A stretch of DNA of 64,000 bases, from assembly GCA_021513695.1 (NCBI GenBank), contig CP084166.1, positions 768,001 to 832,000 on the forward strand, written 5' to 3'. The notes under the pieces are model-generated. The model searched no databases, was not told the DNA's origin, and saw nothing but the letters and a program-made list of their open reading frames with translations. This stretch comes from Candidatus Heimdallarchaeum aukensis (GTDB lineage Archaea > Asgardarchaeota > Heimdallarchaeia > Heimdallarchaeales > Heimdallarchaeaceae). A program made the translations under genes and the position numbers. Positions 31,143 through 39,683 of this stretch are shown here, piece by piece; position 1 is the stretch's first letter; the number at the start of each line of letters is the position of its first letter.

Positions 31143-32327
31143 TTACAACTTTCTATTTTTTCTTGATAATTGAACTATTTTTTTTATTACTACAAATTCT
31201 GTTTCATTTAGGACGTTTTTTGTGATTTTTATTTTTTCTTGCTGAATTCTTACTTGGTTTGCATATTCATTCTCAACTAATAGCTCCATCTCCTCTGTTA
31301 TCGCTCCATCTACATTTGTTTTAATAACTTCCATGAGGTTATTATATTTTTCTAGTATTTTTTCATAAACAGCTAATTTTGAAGAGAATTTTGATGTATA
31401 CTTATTTATTTCTTCAGCTCGTTTAATGTCTATAGAAGTTAAACTATCAGTAGCTTCAGATAAATCTCTTAATTCTTCTTCACTAAATTCTCTTTTAACA
31501 AAACTTGAAATTATAGAAATAAGTGATTTATCCAGCAAATAATCTGTTTTTCTCTCATAGCTTATACTAGGGATTGATTTTGATAGAGAAGATTTTTTAC
31601 TTTTGAAGGTAGTATCTTTTTTTTCTGTTGTTAAATACTTTTCAACAAGAACTAATTTTTCATTCCACCATTCCTTAAAAGAAAGACCAGGAGTATATTC
31701 AATAGCAAAATTTAGAAAAATTGTTCCTTTAGCTAAAACTGTTGCGCCTATAGGTTTTTTGAATATGGGTTTACTTGTTCTTTTACCTACAAAGTCATAT
31801 GTACTAAAAGAATGAAAGTTTGAGGGAAGATCTTTTGCTTTACCAAAAAAAATTATTTCTTTTCCAAGATTTGCTAAATCTTTGAGATCTCCTAAAGTTA
31901 CTAAATAATCTTCTCCTAACGAAAGATAAACAAGATCATAAGTTTTTTTGGATAATTTTCTAACAGATTCTGGAATAGCTAATTTTTCTGCTCTTTCTTT
32001 TATTGCTTTTTTTGATAAGCCTGAAAAAGTGCACTCATAAGGAGGAAGAAGTTCATTCTCATTAACTAATCCAAAACCTGCAGAAATAATGTAATAATCA
32101 ACTTCAGCTTTTGACGAAAGAATCTTAACAGCTTTTTTTATTGCAAGAGCTTGTCCACCTATGTATAATTCTCCTGCTTCTCTTAATAATGAAGAAAATT
32201 TTTCTTTTGCACTTTCTCTTTGATCTTTTGTTTCTAGGTCCTTACATGTTGGTTGATCATCATGTTGTACAGACTTTTTCTTTCCACAAGAGTTAATAAC
32301 AAGTATTGAAGGTTTCAGAGATCTCAC
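31143..32327 (-). CDS. Hypothetical protein with a YaaA/DUF328-like N-terminal domain and a C-terminal coiled-coil extension, tentative
   Basis: PSILVINSCGKKK...YIISAGFGLVNENELLPPYE resembles YaaA MLILISPAKT...LSGLYGVLRPLDLMQPYR. The last ~140 aa are K/E-rich and helical. Confidence 0.3.
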   Translation of the reverse strand: MRSLKPSILVINSCGKKKSVQHDDQPTCKDLETKDQRESAKEKFSSLLREAGELYIGGQALAIKKAVKILSSKAEVDYYIISAGFGLVNENELLPPYECTFSGLSKKAIKERAEKLAIPESVRKLSKKTYDLVYLSLGEDYLVTLGDLKDLANLGKEIIFFGKAKDLPSNFHSFSTYDFVGKRTSKPIFKKPIGATVLAKGTIFLNFAIEYTPGLSFKEWWNEKLVLVEKYLTTEKKDTTFKSKKSSLSKSIPSISYERKTDYLLDKSLISIISSFVKREFSEEELRDLSEATDSLTSIDIKRAEEINKYTSKFSSKLAVYEKILEKYNNLMEVIKTNVDGAITEEMELLVENEYANQVRIQQEKIKITKNVLNETEFVVIKKIVQLSRKNRKL

Positions 32328-32333
32328 CTAAAG

Positions 32334-32753
32334 CTATTCAGTATCCTTTTTTGCCAAATATCGATTATAAAATCTTTTAATTTTCTTTTTTTCGAGATCA
32401 AAATCTAGATCTTTACTATTTTTGCCTTCTTGCCTTTCCATTTTATTGAGTTTACTTTGAATTTTGCTTAGTTTTAGAGCAAGCATTGAATTTCTTCTAA
32501 AAAGTTCACTGTTTTCAAAAAACAAAACCCCATATGCTTTTCTAAGTTTACTATACTTTATTGTTAATTCATTATATCGTTCTCTTAATTCTTCAAGATT
32601 CTTAAGTAGACTAACCTCATCAATTTGTAAATCCTCGCTGTTTAATGCCAGAAAATCATAATAATCAAGGAGTGTGTTAATTATATCATCAGTATATTCA
32701 GTAACATCTTCAAAAATAGCAGGAATCTTGACATTAGTGATCATTTTCTTCAT
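32334..32753 (-). CDS. Coiled-coil hypothetical protein
   Basis: A 139-aa protein rich in heptad-like L/K/E. It overlaps the upstream ORF by 4 nt (ATGA), which suggests translational coupling. Confidence 0.35.
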   Translation of the reverse strand: MKKMITNVKIPAIFEDVTEYTDDIINTLLDYYDFLALNSEDLQIDEVSLLKNLEELRERYNELTIKYSKLRKAYGVLFFENSELFRRNSMLALKLSKIQSKLNKMERQEGKNSKDLDFDLEKKKIKRFYNRYLAKKDTE

Positions 32754-33106
32754 TTTGCTACACCTTTTAGAATACCATCTAACTTCTCTTCAAGTTCAGT
32801 AATAACATTATAATCTTCATTATATTCTTTCTTCATTTGTTTTTCTTCTTCTATACTTTTTTTCAATTTTTCAATTTCTTTTTCTCTTTCTGGAATTTTC
32901 TCCAAAAGAGCCTTATATTCTAGTATATACTCCACAAATGCCCAAGAAAGCTTTTTTTCTTTGTTATATTCTGTAAGAAACTTAAAAAATTGGTTTACTT
33001 TTTCTATTATTGTTTCAGATTTTTCCTTTCTCTCTTCAGCGATTCTAGCAATTTTTCGCTGAATTCTTGAGGAAAAAGAAATCTTTACTTTCTCTTGTTT
33101 TTTCAT
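32750..33106 (-). CDS. Ribbon-helix-helix (CopG/Arc-like) domain protein with a coiled-coil tail
   Basis: The N-terminus KVKISFSSRIQRKIARIAEERKEKSETIIEKV fits a beta-strand plus two-helix RHH pattern. It is the first gene of a three-gene minus-strand operon. Confidence 0.4.
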   Translation of the reverse strand: MKKQEKVKISFSSRIQRKIARIAEERKEKSETIIEKVNQFFKFLTEYNKEKKLSWAFVEYILEYKALLEKIPEREKEIEKLKKSIEEEKQMKKEYNEDYNVITELEEKLDGILKGVAK

Positions 33107-33246: not shown

Positions 33247-33576
33247 ATGGAAGAAATAAGTGTCAAGGAGTATTTAGAAAAATCAGGACAATTACTAGAA
33301 AAATATAGATTTAATATTGAAAATCTTCGACATCAGAGAAAACAAATAGAACAGAAATTTTTCCTCCCTCACGAGATGGTTGACTTTTTTCATACAAATA
33401 AAAGCGAATACAAAGTTTGGTTAAAAATTCAAGACATGATTCTCACACTTGAAGATGCTTATGCAGACCTAGTTGGGAGTATGATGGAAGCAAAAGCTAA
33501 CCCTGATAATTATAATTATTATTTAGAAGACAAACGTATTACAATTATGCAACTAAAAGAAACTGAAGAAGAATAA
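33247..33576 (+). CDS. Hypothetical protein
   Basis: A 109-aa helical ORF that leads the plus-strand cluster ending in GDPD. Confidence 0.35.
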   Translation: MEEISVKEYLEKSGQLLEKYRFNIENLRHQRKQIEQKFFLPHEMVDFFHTNKSEYKVWLKIQDMILTLEDAYADLVGSMMEAKANPDNYNYYLEDKRITIMQLKETEEE

Positions 33577-33678: not shown

Positions 33679-35265
33679 TTGATGAGATTTGTTTTATTTT
33701 CTGATACCCATATTGGTGGAAGATATGATGAAATGATATTGATGAAAGGTATAGATTTTATTAATAACATTGATGGAGATATTTTTATTCACTGTGGAGA
33801 TTTAACTGGTTCTGGCACTTTGGCTGAATATGAGATTGCTAGACTTTATTTAGAAAAAATCAAGAAAAGGCCTTTTTTCATTGTTCCTGGAAATCATGAC
33901 TGCAAAAATGTGGGTGATTTACTTTTTGAAGAAATAGTTGGTGAGCGTTTTTGGGTAAAGACATTCGAAAAAAAGAAAACTCGGATTCTTGGTCTTGACT
34001 CTACTGAACCCGATGCAAATACTGGAAGAATGGGTCCTAAATCAATAAAAAGAATTTATGAAGAATTTGAGGATTTACCAGAATATTGGTTAAAAGTTTT
34101 AGTTTTTCATCATCAGACTTTACCAATTCCCTATACTGGTAGAGAAAGAAGTGCAATCAAAGATGCAGGAGATGTAGTGAAAGCTATTCTTGATTGTAAC
34201 ATTCATCTTGTTTTCAATGGTCATAGGCACATTTCTAATGTCTATAAGATGTCTGATGGAGTAGTAAATGCTTGGATTATTAATGTTGGTACATTATCTT
34301 GTAAAAAAACTAGATATAGAGAAGAGTATAGCTTAACTGTCGTTGATGCTTCTTTAAAGAAAAACAACCTTGCTATTCGTAGTATACTACTTAAGAAAGA
34401 GCCTATCAGAGAAGTTGTAAAATATTCTGGTAAATTCCAACGTTTTATTGCCCCTATGAATAAGAAACACATAGCAACAATAATTCAAATAGGCAATACA
34501 GCTTTTTCTAATTCACGATTTAGGATGGGTAATTTCTACAAAGGTCTCGAAACAATTAATCTCATCCCTTGTGATGTAGTTGTCCATTGTGGAGAAGTTA
34601 CAGGTGCCTCCTATGTCAATGAGTTTCAAAGAGCAAAGGCTTTATTATCTCAAATAGAAAAACCTCTTATTGTTGTTCCAGGAGATAATGATGCTTTTCC
34701 ACTTGGTTGGGATTTGTTTCCTGAGTACATTGGTGATCCTAACCCCTATTTTGAGAATGAGCATTTGATTGTTAAAGGGTTCAATACTTGCTTAATTGAC
34801 GAACAAGAGGGAAGACTCGGAAGAGGAAATATGAAAGAGATGATAACAACATTTGAGAATAAATCAAAAATAGGAGTAGTAGCTTTTCATCATTCAATAA
34901 TGCCTTTACCTCACTCTAAACATGATGCAGAGCTAATAGATGCAGGAGATGTTCTTGCTGCCATAGTAAACCACAGAATCAATCTCGTTTTAACTGGAGC
35001 TAAAAATAGAAGCGGGTGTTGGCAAGTTAACGACACTGTATTTGTAAATGCTGGAACACTCAGCTCTGAAAATATTACTACAAGAGACGGAAATAGTTTC
35101 AACATAATAACCATTAGCCAAACAGATATAGGTAAACTTTACGAGGTCGATGAGTATTTTGTTGAAACAAACGAAAGAAAAACTATTGGAGTTTTCCATA
35201 TTTCTGATAGGGGGATACCTATTCTCATTCCTGATAGAAAGGTTCCCAACACCATTCATTTATGA
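33679..35265 (+). CDS. Tandem calcineurin-like metallophosphoesterase. The first domain is intact and the second is degenerate.
   Basis: Domain 1 has LFSDTHIG, HCGDLT, GNHD, FHHQ and NGHRH, a complete MPE motif set. Domain 2 has HCGEVTG, PGDND, FHHS and TGAKN, with the His positions of motifs III and V lost. Confidence 0.75.
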   Translation: MMRFVLFSDTHIGGRYDEMILMKGIDFINNIDGDIFIHCGDLTGSGTLAEYEIARLYLEKIKKRPFFIVPGNHDCKNVGDLLFEEIVGERFWVKTFEKKKTRILGLDSTEPDANTGRMGPKSIKRIYEEFEDLPEYWLKVLVFHHQTLPIPYTGRERSAIKDAGDVVKAILDCNIHLVFNGHRHISNVYKMSDGVVNAWIINVGTLSCKKTRYREEYSLTVVDASLKKNNLAIRSILLKKEPIREVVKYSGKFQRFIAPMNKKHIATIIQIGNTAFSNSRFRMGNFYKGLETINLIPCDVVVHCGEVTGASYVNEFQRAKALLSQIEKPLIVVPGDNDAFPLGWDLFPEYIGDPNPYFENEHLIVKGFNTCLIDEQEGRLGRGNMKEMITTFENKSKIGVVAFHHSIMPLPHSKHDAELIDAGDVLAAIVNHRINLVLTGAKNRSGCWQVNDTVFVNAGTLSSENITTRDGNSFNIITISQTDIGKLYEVDEYFVETNERKTIGVFHISDRGIPILIPDRKVPNTIHL

Positions 35266-35343
35266 TATAACTTAGATATTTAACTAGTTATATCGATAGA
35301 TATTGTAAAAAAATTTAAATCTAAATAATGAAGTGTACACCTT

Positions 35344-36627
35344 ATGCACAAAGAGGTAAAAAATTCAAAAAACGTTTCTTTTCCAGTTGTAATAAAAAAT
35401 TTAGATGAGAGAATGAATAAATGGTTGAAAGAAGCACAGAAACGTATATTTAGTATTGCTGCAGGAGATAGGATTTCATTCATAGCTTCTGCCATAGCAC
35501 AAGTTGGTTTTGGCAAAATCCTCTATGCTGCAAATGAACTTGGGGTTGATATTGAAAAAACCAAACCATACATTTTTTTTGCTCCTGACGGAACTTGCTC
35601 ATACAACGAAATTAGAATAAAAAGAGGTTTTACATATGGTTGTATATTCAAAGCAGATTTCGAGGGACTGATTGGTACTAATAACTCAATGCCAAACGGT
35701 TGTGGATATAGCTTATATGAACTTAAAGATTGGAACGATGATGAAACTCTAATCAGAACTTTAAACCAAATAAAGCAAAATATAACAGAAGAACAAGCAA
35801 AAGAACTAGGAAAAGGCAATCATTTTATTGCTGTTTACAAGGTTTTAGACGCTATATCAGGAGAAGATACAGAAAGGAGAATGGTATTACTTCATTGTAG
35901 TGGGCATGATTTAAGCAAAAAACCACTTTATTTCTTCAACTGGTTAGAAGAAACAGATGGATGTCATAAAGTACAAACACCACATGGAGAAATTTACCTT
36001 TTAGAAAGTGAGGCAAAAAAGAGATATATCAAAGAATTTGAGAAACTTGACAAACACAATAAAGAAGCTCGTGTCACTGTCATGAAAGAGTTGTTTAGAG
36101 ACTCTTCCTATGAATTAATTTCAAGTATCACTCACCAAGGGTTATATAATAACGGTTCATATCATTTTTTGGGAATACAAAAAAGCGAAAAACTTATTCC
36201 TATAGCTTTCAATGCAGATGAAGGAGGAATTGCTGTCAAGACAAAGAAGAATCTGTCAGGACAATTTATAGATCAATGGAAACAAGGAACAAGAGTGAAA
36301 GATTTAGGATATGAAAGAGAATTTAAAGAGCTCAACTTTACTCCACACGGAGGAGGATACGAATTCAAATACCCAATCAAACGTTTTGTTATATTCTTAA
36401 ATGATCAAGGACTGGATCACTTCTCGGTTGAATTAAAAAAGCCGAAAGAGCCAAGTATTAAACTTATTGCTTCCTATTTCAAACCTATTAGAGAATACAT
36501 GACATATAGGAGAAAGTTACCAGTAATGAAAGAAGTCTTTAAAGCGGAGCTAGCAAACCACATTTATGATCTTGTTCCATTTATGCAATTACATCCTAAA
36601 GTTAGTATTCCTGGAGGACATTACTAA
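35344..36627 (+). CDS. Divergent RtcB-superfamily protein (RNA 3'-phosphate ligase fold)
   Basis: RtcB metal/active-site motifs appear in order: PNGCGYS (DIGCGM in RtcB), LGKGNHFIAV (GTGNHFIEI), MVLLHCSGHDL (IMLHSGSRG) and FTPHGGGYEF (CSHGAGR). The rest of the sequence diverges strongly from canonical RtcB. Confidence 0.5.
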   Translation: MHKEVKNSKNVSFPVVIKNLDERMNKWLKEAQKRIFSIAAGDRISFIASAIAQVGFGKILYAANELGVDIEKTKPYIFFAPDGTCSYNEIRIKRGFTYGCIFKADFEGLIGTNNSMPNGCGYSLYELKDWNDDETLIRTLNQIKQNITEEQAKELGKGNHFIAVYKVLDAISGEDTERRMVLLHCSGHDLSKKPLYFFNWLEETDGCHKVQTPHGEIYLLESEAKKRYIKEFEKLDKHNKEARVTVMKELFRDSSYELISSITHQGLYNNGSYHFLGIQKSEKLIPIAFNADEGGIAVKTKKNLSGQFIDQWKQGTRVKDLGYEREFKELNFTPHGGGYEFKYPIKRFVIFLNDQGLDHFSVELKKPKEPSIKLIASYFKPIREYMTYRRKLPVMKEVFKAELANHIYDLVPFMQLHPKVSIPGGHY

Positions 36628-36651
36628 TCAAGATTTAACCAAAGTGATAAT

Positions 36652-37395
36652 ATGCATTCTAACCCTTACATTATAGCTCATCGGGGTTTTTCTTCTAAAT
36701 ACCCCGAAAATACTATTCTAGCGATTAACAGGTCAGTAGGAATAGCAGATATTGTTGAATTTGATGTTCAACTTACAAAAGATAGGTATGTAGTTTTATT
36801 TCATGATGAAACAACAAAAAGGATTTTCCCAGAAATCGAGGAGAAGAGAATCCAAGACTTATATTATCATGAACTAAAAGAATTAAATGCTGGTAAATGG
36901 TTTTCATCAAAAATAGAAAAACAAACTATTCCCAAACTCGAGGAAGTAGTAGAAAAGATAAACAACAAAATCTCAATGATTATTGAATTAAAGAACAAGG
37001 GAAATAAAGAAAAAAAAGAAGAACTAGCTACTATAGTATTGAATATCCTAGATGACAACAATGTCTCTTTAAACAAAGGGTATCTTTCAGTTCGAGACTT
37101 AGAAATGCTTGAAATTATTAACTCTCTTTCTTCAAAATACAGAATTGGATTAATGCAGAAAACGAGAACACCGGAAGAATTTATAGAACTAGTTAAAAGT
37201 AACAATCTTGAATTTGCTCAAATAAGATGGAAGAATTGGACTGAGAGTAATTGGCAAGAACTTTTGTCTTTAGAAACTAAAATTACTGCTTTTTATGCTG
37301 ATGAAGAAAAAGAATACAATTTTTTAATTGAAAAACAAGTTTATGGAATTTTCACTAATTTTCCAGATAGATTAAGAAAACTGCTGAACATGTAG
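36652..37395 (+). CDS. Glycerophosphodiester phosphodiesterase (GDPD) family protein
   Basis: IIAHRGFSSKYPENT, EFDVQLTKDRYVVLFHDETT and GIFTNFPD. It starts 24 nt after the RtcB-like gene. Confidence 0.75.
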   Translation: MHSNPYIIAHRGFSSKYPENTILAINRSVGIADIVEFDVQLTKDRYVVLFHDETTKRIFPEIEEKRIQDLYYHELKELNAGKWFSSKIEKQTIPKLEEVVEKINNKISMIIELKNKGNKEKKEELATIVLNILDDNNVSLNKGYLSVRDLEMLEIINSLSSKYRIGLMQKTRTPEEFIELVKSNNLEFAQIRWKNWTESNWQELLSLETKITAFYADEEKEYNFLIEKQVYGIFTNFPDRLRKLLNM

Positions 37396-37403
37396 AATTT
37401 AAT

Positions 37404-38147
37404 TTATTGAGGTTTCTTTCCTACAGTCGCTGCATAAATTACAAATTGATCTTTTCCATTAATGTTTAACAATTTATTTAGTTCATCATCATGAAAAGCT
37501 CCTATAGCACATGTTCCACAATCTATATTTTCAGAAGCAAGATAGAGATTCTGACAAACATGTCCCGCATCTAAGAATAGATATCTATACCCTCTTTCTC
37601 CATATCTCCAGGCCATACGGTAAGGAACAGCAACCCAAAAGAATGTTACAGCACTTCTTTTTACAGTACTTTGGTTATAAGATGCTTTTGTAAACTTTTC
37701 TGCTAGATTTTTTGAATTATCAATAGGCATCAGACTATGTTTAGAAGCAATATATCTATAGAGACCTGGTTCTATGTTGTCTACATTATTAATTAACAAG
37801 AAAGTTTCAAAAGCATGCCTAGCTCCTGCTGAAGGAACAGTTCTGAGAGTATAAGCTTGTCTCATAAATTCTTTTATTCCTTGAGAAGACCAGAGTAGCC
37901 AGCTTAACTCTAGTAAGCTTATTGGATCAGGAGCATATTTTCTTAAAGATCTTCTGTTTGTGATGCACTCTTTTAAAGAAACTTGAGGAATATTACTAAA
38001 ATCTCTACTCAATTCAATTAATTCTGCATTTTCGTCCCATGGGAGCTCTAAAGGGGGAGAGGGAGCTCCTTTACCTTGATCACTTCGAGAAAGATACTTA
38101 TACTTAGTTTTTTCAATAAACTCTTTTCCAATATTTTTGTATGTCAT
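37404..38147 (-). CDS. SagB-type dehydrogenase / nitroreductase-family protein
   Basis: NRRSLRKY is a nitroreductase-family motif. The 247-aa size and a C-terminal Cys pair fit SagB/ThcOx-type proteins. Confidence 0.55.
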   Translation of the reverse strand: MTYKNIGKEFIEKTKYKYLSRSDQGKGAPSPPLELPWDENAELIELSRDFSNIPQVSLKECITNRRSLRKYAPDPISLLELSWLLWSSQGIKEFMRQAYTLRTVPSAGARHAFETFLLINNVDNIEPGLYRYIASKHSLMPIDNSKNLAEKFTKASYNQSTVKRSAVTFFWVAVPYRMAWRYGERGYRYLFLDAGHVCQNLYLASENIDCGTCAIGAFHDDELNKLLNINGKDQFVIYAATVGKKPQ

Positions 38148-38242: not shown

Positions 38243-38788
38243 GTGATACAGAGGAACTACAAAATAATACTTATTGGAAATGCTCTTGTTGGAAAAACTG
38301 CTATTGTAACACGTTTTGCTAAAGATTACTTTGAACAGAACTATTTGAGAACGCTAGGAATCAATTACTACATAAAGACACAAGTAATTACTAATGTAGA
38401 AGTAAAGATGATTATTACAGACACCGCAGGACAAGAAGCGTTTCAACGCCTAAGAAGTTCGTATTACAAGGGGGCAAGAGGAGCAATAATTGTTTATGCA
38501 ATAAATGACAGACATAGCTTTGGACAAGTTGATTATTGGAAGAATGAAATGTTCAAGACTTTAAAAGAAATCCCAATAATAATTGTCGGAAATAAAATTG
38601 ACTTAATCGATCAAAGAAGAATATCAACAAGTGAAGGACGCTTGTTAGCGAAAAAATTGGGTTGTTTATTTATTGAATCATCTGCTAAAACAGGAGAAAA
38701 TATTGATAAAATCTTTGAAATGATAGTTAAAGATATACTAAGAAAAGATAATTTAATAACAGAAGAAAAAGAAGAAAGTTCTACTTAA
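38243..38788 (+). CDS. Ras/Rab-like small GTPase
   Basis: G1 is GNALVGKT, switch I is RTLGIN, G3 is DTAGQE, G4 is GNKIDL and G5 is SAKTG. There is no C-terminal prenylation Cys. Confidence 0.8.
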   Translation: MIQRNYKIILIGNALVGKTAIVTRFAKDYFEQNYLRTLGINYYIKTQVITNVEVKMIITDTAGQEAFQRLRSSYYKGARGAIIVYAINDRHSFGQVDYWKNEMFKTLKEIPIIIVGNKIDLIDQRRISTSEGRLLAKKLGCLFIESSAKTGENIDKIFEMIVKDILRKDNLITEEKEESST

Positions 38789-38918: not shown

Positions 38919-39683
38919 ATGCTAGAAAGAGTTTTTTTTATTTATTACCAGTATATCTTTTTATCTTTAGGTATAGTAACTTTTTTTCTATTACTTAGAA
39001 TTACAGCTCCTTATGGGAAACATTTTTCAGAAAAATTTGGTCCTTCAATTAAAGGTTCTTGGGCTTGGTTGATTATGGAATCACCAGCAGCAATTACGAC
39101 TACGATTCTATTCTTACTTTCGCTAAAAGAACTATCACTAGTTCCTGTGCTTTTGGTTTGCATTTTTTGTATTCACTACTACCCTAGAGATTTTATTTAC
39201 CCTTTTTGGGCTAGAAGAGAAGCAAAAACACCTTTGATTATTATGTTCTCTGCTATATTCTTTAATATTAGCAATGCTTATCTTCAGACTAGATGGTTAC
39301 TCAAATTCGCTCCTGAAGATAAGTATACTATTAGTTGGCTTTATAGTCCCCAATTTATTGTTGGAAGTTTACTATTTATTTTAGGATTTATATTTAATCG
39401 AAAAGCTGAATTCTCATTAAGAAAACTAAGAAAGAAAGGAGAAAGTAGTTACAAAATACCCTATGGGGGAATGTTTGAGCTTATATCTTGTCCTAACTAC
39501 TTCTTTGAAATTATTGAATGGATAGGTTGGGCAATAATAACTTGGTCAATTCCAGGGCTTGTATTTATGATTTGGACTATAGCTAATCTTGGCCCAAGAG
39601 CAGTTAGCACGCATAACTGGTATAAAAATAACTTTCCAAATTATCCAAAATCAAGAAAAGCTCTTATTCCATTTGTTTTTTGA
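38919..39683 (+). CDS. 3-oxo-5-alpha-steroid 4-dehydrogenase (SRD5A) family membrane reductase, second paralog
   Basis: The C-terminus YKIPYGGMFELISCPNYFFEIIEWIGWAIITWSIPGLVFMIWTIANLGPRAVSTHNWYKNNFPNYPKSRKALIPFVF shares the signature seen in 19716..20537. Confidence 0.75.
   Translation: MLERVFFIYYQYIFLSLGIVTFFLLLRITAPYGKHFSEKFGPSIKGSWAWLIMESPAAITTTILFLLSLKELSLVPVLLVCIFCIHYYPRDFIYPFWARREAKTPLIIMFSAIFFNISNAYLQTRWLLKFAPEDKYTISWLYSPQFIVGSLLFILGFIFNRKAEFSLRKLRKKGESSYKIPYGGMFELISCPNYFFEIIEWIGWAIITWSIPGLVFMIWTIANLGPRAVSTHNWYKNNFPNYPKSRKALIPFVF

Follow-up and report, generated by a model that had tools for sequence, protein, structure and literature searches.

The chromosome of Candidatus Heimdallarchaeum aukensis encodes a member of a deeply divergent and uncurated branch of the RtcB fold. 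In this branch the catalytic residues of the RNA ligase RtcB are kept, the residues for polynucleotide binding and guanine recognition are lost, and the partners are phosphodiesterases from different superfamilies. The gene lies in an AT-rich stretch of 64 kb (contig CP084166.1, positions 768,001 to 832,000; hereafter the window; GC content about 30%) between the genes for a tandem metallophosphoesterase (MPE) and a glycerophosphodiester phosphodiesterase (GDPD). We tentatively prefer the view that the RtcB-like protein works as a module with the UgpQ-like GDPD and the tandem MPE of the GpdQ/Rv0805 class, and that a small glycerophospho-type compound is the substrate. As stated in a preliminary description of this DNA, the three phosphoester-processing genes are closely spaced and co-directional on the + strand, the corresponding open reading frames (ORFs) being located at 33679-35265, 35344-36627 and 36652-37395. 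They comprise the following features:

33682..35265, + strand: tandem MPE of 527 amino acids (aa), assigned by a Pfam Metallophos match in the N-terminal half and by motif conservation
About 33682-34440, + strand: N-terminal MPE domain, predicted to be an active phosphodiesterase of the GpdQ/Rv0805 class
About 34441-35265, + strand: C-terminal MPE domain, homologous to the first, metal-binding motifs lost
35344..36627, + strand: RtcB-like protein of 427 aa, predicted RtcB fold, catalytic core kept
35695-35697, 35701-35703 and 35818-35823: codons for N118, C120 and N159-H160 of the RtcB-like protein
35893-35895, 36133-36135 and 36346-36348: codons for H184, H264 and H335, the last being the predicted nucleophile that accepts a nucleoside monophosphate (NMP)
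36652..37395, + strand: cytoplasmic UgpQ-type GDPD of 247 aa, predicted to be active from its Pfam GDPD match and its catalytic residues

The relationship of the 427-aa protein to RtcB is remote. The Pfam model PF01139 (RtcB) matched the protein with an E-value of 0.27 and 10.9 bits, which is below the gathering threshold of 27 bits, and NCBIfam yielded no match. Moreover, none of 110 family members reached the PF01139 threshold; 14 of them had E-values below 1, the best being 1.8e-4. Since PDB searches with the single sequence and with a Heimdall-only profile gave nothing significant, the homology is visible only by using the 110-sequence profile, which matched P. horikoshii RtcB (5.7e-5), and by hhalign against a small alignment of canonical RtcB (probability 96-98.5%, E-values of 3.7e-9 to 1.8e-14, about 300 columns). 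Thus, the placement in the RtcB family proposed in the preliminary description stands at the level of the profiles, whereas the window protein itself remains below the PF01139 threshold. Its model also supports an RtcB fold, on which the earlier proposal depended. With about 13% identity to canonical RtcB, the protein is indeed as far from the archaeal enzyme as had been supposed, and it carries the RtcB motifs GCG, GNHF, LHCSGH and PHGGG in this order.

An exhaustive profile search revealed that the family consists of at least 248 clusters or representatives at 50% identity, mostly of 360-410 aa, and 400 relatives were detected in JGI metagenomes. Members occur in Altiarchaeales, Methanofastidiosia, Thermoproteota and one Verrucomicrobium. 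The distribution is patchy, with the family missing from most archaea and present in scattered lineages. The nearest homologs and the nearest loci of the window protein are all from Heimdallarchaeia. The closest locus, on the complete chromosome of Ca. Heimdallarchaeum endolithica PR6, is fully syntenic and encodes an RtcB-like protein with 94% identity; two further contigs, one of 70 kb and one of >1 Mb, encode the identical protein. Pfam and NCBIfam have no model for the family, a single NCBI record names a member "RtcB family protein", and our literature search found no paper that describes this branch or links RtcB with GDPD.

The active site was compared with that of canonical RtcB. In canonical RtcB (numbering of P. 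horikoshii, Pho), Mn1 is bound by Cys98, His234 and His329 and Mn2 by Asp95, Cys98 and His203. His404 is the nucleophile that accepts guanosine monophosphate, Asn202 anchors the 5'-OH, and Arg238 (Arg189 in E. coli, Eco) clamps the 5'-OH strand at its first two phosphodiesters (PMC8051266, PMC10630183). Conservation was counted over the 110 family sequences, which range down to 16-20% identity. Exactly four positions are invariant in 110/110 sequences, namely H160, H184, H264 and H335, followed by N159 (108/110) and C120 (106/110). H160, H184, H264, H335, C120 and N159 align to Eco H168, H185, H281, H337, C78 and N167, respectively, and match the sites with published roles in Pho (H203, H234, H329, H404, C98 and N202). 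Thus, H335 in the P-H-G-G-G motif takes the place of the nucleophile, N159 is the equivalent of the residue anchoring the 5'-OH (PMC8051266), and C120, H184 and H264 are the predicted Mn1 ligands, with the equivalence of H264 and Eco H281 appearing only in global or low-mact hhalign runs and not in the default run. At the putative Mn2 site, Cys and His are present and an equivalent of Asp95 is absent. The Asp95 column is occupied by M116 or a gap and the neighbouring N118 is Asn in 98/110 and Asp in 4/110 sequences, the canonical D-x-x-C-G being replaced by N-x-C-G.

The recognition residues present a different picture. The column of the strand-clamping Arg (H188 in the window protein) contains P, S, H, D, R or K, with Arg in only 10/110 sequences, and the equivalent of Eco Arg341 is not conserved in the family. 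Human RTCB reads the guanine with Glu230, Ser409 and Lys504 (PMC8668186). At these columns, the Heimdall clade has G/A, L and Y/H, and in the wider family Lys or Arg is kept in 70/110 sequences and Glu and Ser are not kept. Furthermore, the segment between the Cys and the N-H motif, which adjoins the strand-binding region, has 45 residues as compared to 91-107 in canonical RtcB, corresponding to a deletion of about 50-60 residues, and the N-terminal region differs as well. The invariance of the catalytic residues, together with the variable or lost recognition residues, shows that the chemistry-bearing core is strongly constrained and that polynucleotide and guanine recognition are gone or remodelled.

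The MPE, which likely starts with the ATG at 33682 rather than with the TTG at 33679 of the ORF list, consists of two halves that are homologous to each other (32% identity, E-value 5e-33), of which only the N-terminal one is matched by Pfam Metallophos. This half contains the five motifs of the GpdQ/Rv0805 class (PF00149; DxH, GD, GNH[DE], H and GHxH) in the form of DxH, GD, GNHD, HH and GHRH, invariant in 16 orthologs. The C-terminal half has NTA, GE, GDND and GAKN at the same motifs, in line with the earlier view of a two-domain calcineurin-like phosphoesterase with an intact first and a degenerate second site. The MPE is nearest to the glycerophosphodiesterase GpdQ and to cyclic-nucleotide phosphodiesterases, not to nucleases or protein phosphatases. 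However, it differs from GpdQ of Enterobacter aerogenes, Rv0805 and the CpdA class-III enzymes by being a tandem duplication of ~527 aa, with a second domain devoid of the metal ligands, and by an identity of about 20%. The tandem architecture represents an Asgard/Bathyarchaeota family with generic annotation only, and orthologs with at least 44% identity are Heimdallarchaeial.

The third gene product had been named a glycerophosphodiester phosphodiesterase, and this assignment was confirmed by a full-length Pfam GDPD match (7.2e-31, 108.6 bits versus a threshold of 23.6), by 27 matching solved structures (best 2pz0, 3.1e-18) and by the complete signature H-R...E.D...H-D...E.K. The catalytic set H10 R11 E36 D38 H51 D52 E112 K114 is invariant in 22 orthologs. 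In these respects the enzyme resembles the UgpQ/GlpQ-type GDPDs (PF03009), and it is predicted from its sequence to be a cytoplasmic, active enzyme of the UgpQ type. It deviates from them in that the NCBIfam match (glycerophosphodiester phosphodiesterase, 4.3e-21, 75 bits) is below the equivalog cut-off of 264 and in the tight coupling to the RtcB-like gene. Given the family relations of the GDPD and the MPE, both constant partners resemble small-molecule phosphodiesterases.

The conservation of the neighbourhood was assessed in 30 species-representative Heimdallarchaeial loci. The GDPD gene directly adjoins the RtcB-like gene in 19 and the tandem MPE gene in 17 of the loci; 16 loci have both as neighbours, and 10 have neither. 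Order and orientation of the genes vary, with at least five arrangements (R, RtcB-like; G, GDPD): MPE>R>G, R>G>MPE, MPE<G<R>, R>G<MPE>, R>G>MPE< and R>DegV>G. The linkage has thus been kept through rearrangement, which argues for a functional coupling of the three genes and settles the question of neighbourhood conservation raised in the preliminary description. In a neighbor-joining tree, the linked RtcB-like genes form a crown clade that has diverged to about 46% identity, and the unlinked ones fall into two groups, a basal clade and a nested clade of paralogs. Two copies each are present in two genomes, CP070695.1 (L029, L030) and GCA_026702845.1 (P0036, P0043). In one Heimdall lineage (L004, 7530-8420, and L039), the gene for a DegV/FakB-like fatty-acid-binding protein (TIGR00762, 3.6e-67) separates the RtcB-like gene from the GDPD gene; such a gene is also located ~1 kb upstream of the unlinked paralog in L003 (4202-5089), beside a Steroid_dh/DUF1295 gene. 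In one basal Heimdall group (L008:3395-5846, L031-L033), the RtcB-like gene directly follows the genes for a PBP_like_2-type binding protein and a fused permease-ATPase of an ABC importer, possibly an oxyanion or phosphate-type transporter. An ABC transporter had appeared to be a third conserved neighbour (10 loci), which turned out to be an artefact of ATPase-domain similarity; the true binding-protein/permease link is restricted to this basal, closely related group. The module was also not recognised as a known anti-phage defence system, as PADLOC gave no match for the RtcB-like protein and the GDPD and only the generic candidate PDC-S10 for the MPE. No tRNA or Rfam RNA was found near the module, and the whole window contains no tRNA gene according to ARAGORN and no Rfam family at the gathering threshold.

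Outside the Heimdallarchaeia, the partners differ. Among 80 metagenomic loci of non-Heimdall relatives there was no GDPD, MPE, DegV or APH. Instead, an HD phosphohydrolase gene adjoins the RtcB-like gene on the same strand in 12/80 loci (5 sequence clusters), and the gene for an AP_endonuc_2 TIM-barrel protein overlaps the stop codon in 12/80 loci (3 clusters). The latter assignment is ambiguous, the barrel being shared by EndoIV, sugar epimerases and the cobamide phosphodiesterase CbiR. In P0118, a protein of 743 aa from an ENA metagenome contig (L041:8001-10232), an APH/thiamine-kinase-like small-molecule kinase domain (Pfam APH, 3.2e-20) is fused to the RtcB-like domain. The gene belongs to a co-directional cluster with genes for two radical SAM enzymes, an aminotransferase, an SDR and an HAD-like hydrolase, a second HAD hydrolase being encoded on the opposite strand, and the cluster looks like one for natural-product or cofactor biosynthesis. 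A theme seen repeatedly is thus an RtcB-like catalytic domain combined with a phosphomonoester-breaking or, in a single case, a phosphomonoester-making enzyme, and many loci are without such a partner enzyme. In three loci from non-Heimdall archaea (L074:5572-6922, L075:8121-9471 and L115:8762-10721), two overlapping HD-matching ORFs in different frames lie beside the RtcB-like gene and may represent two genes or a single one with a frameshift. HIT proteins hydrolyse nucleotidylated phosphates, and a sub-threshold HIT-domain protein (E-value 8e-4; L044:2303-2821) is encoded two genes downstream of the bacterial family member in Lacunisphaera sp. (Verrucomicrobiota), a neighbour that would fit an NMP-transfer system.

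By analogy with RtcB, the following mechanism can be envisaged. A binuclear metal site, with a Mn1-like part formed by C120/H184/H264 and a Mn2-like part formed by N118/C120/H160, in which Asn stands for the canonical Asp, would position a nucleoside triphosphate (NTP) whose base is probably not read as guanine. H335 would attack the alpha-phosphate to give a covalent His-NMP, from which the NMP would move to a phosphomonoester to yield an intermediate activated as a nucleoside diphosphate. A hydroxyl group positioned by N159 would then attack the activated phosphate, resulting in a new phosphodiester and the release of NMP. The partner phosphodiesterases could provide the phosphomonoester by diester cleavage or cyclic-phosphate opening, or they could reverse or edit the product. 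Considering the nature of the partners, the kinase fusion, the links to DegV, the loss of contacts to polynucleotide and guanine and the lack of RtcA, tRNA and Rfam RNA nearby, we regard a tRNA or mRNA end as a less likely substrate than a small metabolite of the glycerophospho type or a lipid head group. A more far-reaching proposal, which we consider speculative and rather unlikely, is that RtcB-type chemistry has been recruited outside nucleic-acid metabolism: in Heimdallarchaeia for an NTP-driven cycle of glycerophosphodiester cleavage and re-ligation (head-group or compatible-solute remodelling), and elsewhere, in the kinase-fused versions, for building phosphodiester-linked natural products.

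Several points weigh against a small substrate. To our knowledge, RtcB is the only family sealing 3'-phosphate to 5'-hydroxyl ends, all known members act on nucleic acids, and the RtcB-fold enzymes characterised so far all act at the 3'-phosphate ends of polynucleotides. MPEs, HD proteins and EndoIV-type TIM barrels are classical nucleic-acid end-healing families, and MPEs of the Rv0805/Lmo2642 type hydrolyse 2',3'-cyclic nucleotides. Moreover, the DegV linkage occurs in few lineages only, the kinase fusion is seen in one cluster of two members, the residue mapping is based on profile alignment and a predicted model rather than on a superposition of coordinates, and the change from Asp to Asn might impair nucleotidylation.

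The strongest alternative, which is possible although we doubt it, would be a specialised RNA or DNA end-repair ligase, a split version of canonical RtcB in which opening of 2',3'-cyclic phosphates or trimming of blocked 3' ends would be left to the partners and the sealing of 3'-P to 5'-OH to the RtcB-like protein. It would agree with the homology to RtcB and the retention of all chemistry-bearing residues, and with the recurrence of the HD, MPE and AP_endonuc_2 partners in independent lineages. The nearest structural relatives of the MPE include enzymes hydrolysing 2',3'-cyclic NMP, and the replacement of Asp by Asn could have removed the intrinsic cyclic phosphodiesterase step and created the need for a partner. 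In one lineage, a TrmI-type tRNA methyltransferase gene is the divergent neighbour of the RtcB-like gene, but this link is confined to one sequence cluster. Such a ligase is also difficult to reconcile with the loss of the Arg that clamps the 5'-OH strand, with the deletion beside the strand-binding region, with the empty RNA context and with the fusion of one member to a small-molecule kinase in a biosynthetic setting. In addition, the most constant partner, the GDPD, has true glycerophosphodiesterases as relatives, and we know of no nucleic-acid substrate for the GDPD family. Thus, of the uncharacterized nucleic-acid repair or processing module put forward in the preliminary description, the conserved module and the divergent RtcB-fold enzyme have been retained, and repair has given way to the small glycerophospho-type or lipid head-group substrate as the preferred reading.

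A purely catabolic island for scavenging organophosphates or phosphodiesters, in which the three proteins would all be hydrolases and the RtcB-like protein would be a metal-dependent (possibly cyclic) phosphodiesterase without ligation, seems improbable. GDPDs and GpdQ-type MPEs are typical phosphorus-scavenging enzymes, and the ABC importer lies directly upstream in the basal Heimdall group. Canonical RtcB also has an intrinsic 2',3'-cyclic phosphodiesterase step (PMC8051266). However, hydrolysis alone does not explain why His335 in P-H-G-x-G and N159, the residue of the joining step, are kept in 110/110 and 108/110 sequences, and the transporter link is limited to closely related genomes. 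That the protein is the sole, orthologous tRNA-splicing RtcB, very diverged and with incidental neighbours, is highly implausible. This reading would agree with the failure to find a canonical RtcB in the 626 kb searched (window, other Heimdall DNA and four non-Heimdall loci), but the neighbours are kept through rearrangements, some genomes have two copies, the family is absent from most archaea, the strand-binding and GTP-binding residues are lost, and PF01139 RtcB has been reported, as indirect evidence, in every near-complete archaeal genome examined, Asgard archaea included (PMC12918454), while the RtcB-like family misses the PF01139 threshold.

Compared to the 3'-P/5'-OH RNA ligases of PF01139 (P. 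horikoshii PH1602, T. thermophilus TTHA1785, E. coli RtcB and human RTCB), the family thus differs by its sub-threshold scores in 110/110 members, the missing Asp95 and strand-clamp Arg, the guanine contacts lost in the Heimdall clade and the shortened segment. It also differs from the Rtc RNA-repair operon. Neither the window nor the Heimdall, other-archaeal and metagenome loci examined yielded an RtcA homolog, and the gene tables of L001-L009 and L041-L044 contain no RTC or Archease Pfam family, no dedicated Archease query having been made; GDPD and MPE are the partners instead. Bacterial RtcB paralogs such as RtcB2 are presumably canonical PF01139 members acting on rRNA. With the RtcB2-PrfH ribosome-repair module, a likeness can be seen in the presence of an extra RtcB-type ligase whose task is set by an operon partner (PMC9223846, PMC13166195). 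The RtcB-like protein differs from such paralogs in lying outside PF01139 and in having small-molecule-type phosphodiesterases as partners. New are therefore the altered metal site, the altered nucleotide and substrate recognition and the partners. The retained catalytic core and the glycerophosphodiesterase-like partners hint at RtcB-type chemistry beyond tRNA in a Heimdallarchaeon, and the Heimdallarchaeia are the closest archaeal relatives of eukaryotes. If small phosphoesters are the substrates, phosphodiester bonds would be formed by a new biochemical route, and the family would be a new class of enzymes in Asgard lipid head-group or metabolite chemistry; if RNA is the substrate, a new split heal-and-seal repair system would have been uncovered.

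Two short non-coding features may be relevant for the expression of the module:

35300..35343, + strand: candidate promoter, A/T-rich (AAAAAAATTTAAAT...) and immediately before the RtcB-like ATG, proposed from sequence and conservation
36628..36651, + strand: 24-bp spacer preceding the GDPD start and containing GTGAT, a Shine-Dalgarno-like motif

Comparison with the 94%-identical sister genome shows almost no change in the ~45 bp preceding the RtcB-like ATG, and the DNA just upstream of them has diverged. The TATA-like stretch is therefore a candidate archaeal TATA/BRE promoter for the RtcB-like-GDPD pair. The GTGAT spacer is consistent with co-transcription and coupled translation of these two genes, which overlap or have a gap of 2-105 bp in other genomes. 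A perfect 9-bp inverted repeat (GATATAACT / AGTTATATC, 13-nt spacer, 35264-35294) straddles the MPE stop codon, its left arm starting at the last base of the stop. It was considered as a terminator or operator and dismissed, as it is not conserved in the sister genome.

The genes upstream of the module are a DUF6884 gene (31143-32327, - strand), two small coiled-coil-like ORFs (32334-33106, - strand) and a 109-aa ORF (33247-33576, + strand); because only the closest relative (L011) shows synteny here, they were placed outside the conserved module. Downstream, a SagB-type nitroreductase/dehydrogenase gene (TIGR03605, 3.7e-40; 37404-38147, - strand) is convergent with the GDPD gene across an 8-bp gap, and no cyclodehydratase or precursor-peptide partner was noticed close by. 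It is followed by a gene for a Ras/Rab-family small GTPase (Pfam Ras, 6.7e-53; 38243-38788, + strand), a typical Asgard "eukaryotic signature" protein, whose position is kept in Ca. H. endolithica. A membrane protein of the 3-oxo-5-alpha-steroid 4-dehydrogenase/polyprenol-reductase family (Pfam, 2.7e-55) is encoded 1.5 kb downstream of the module (38919-39683, + strand). The 3-oxo-5-alpha-steroid 4-dehydrogenase family was found again near the RtcB-like genes in L003 and L039, and this recurrence may reflect a lipid-related theme or mere local synteny.

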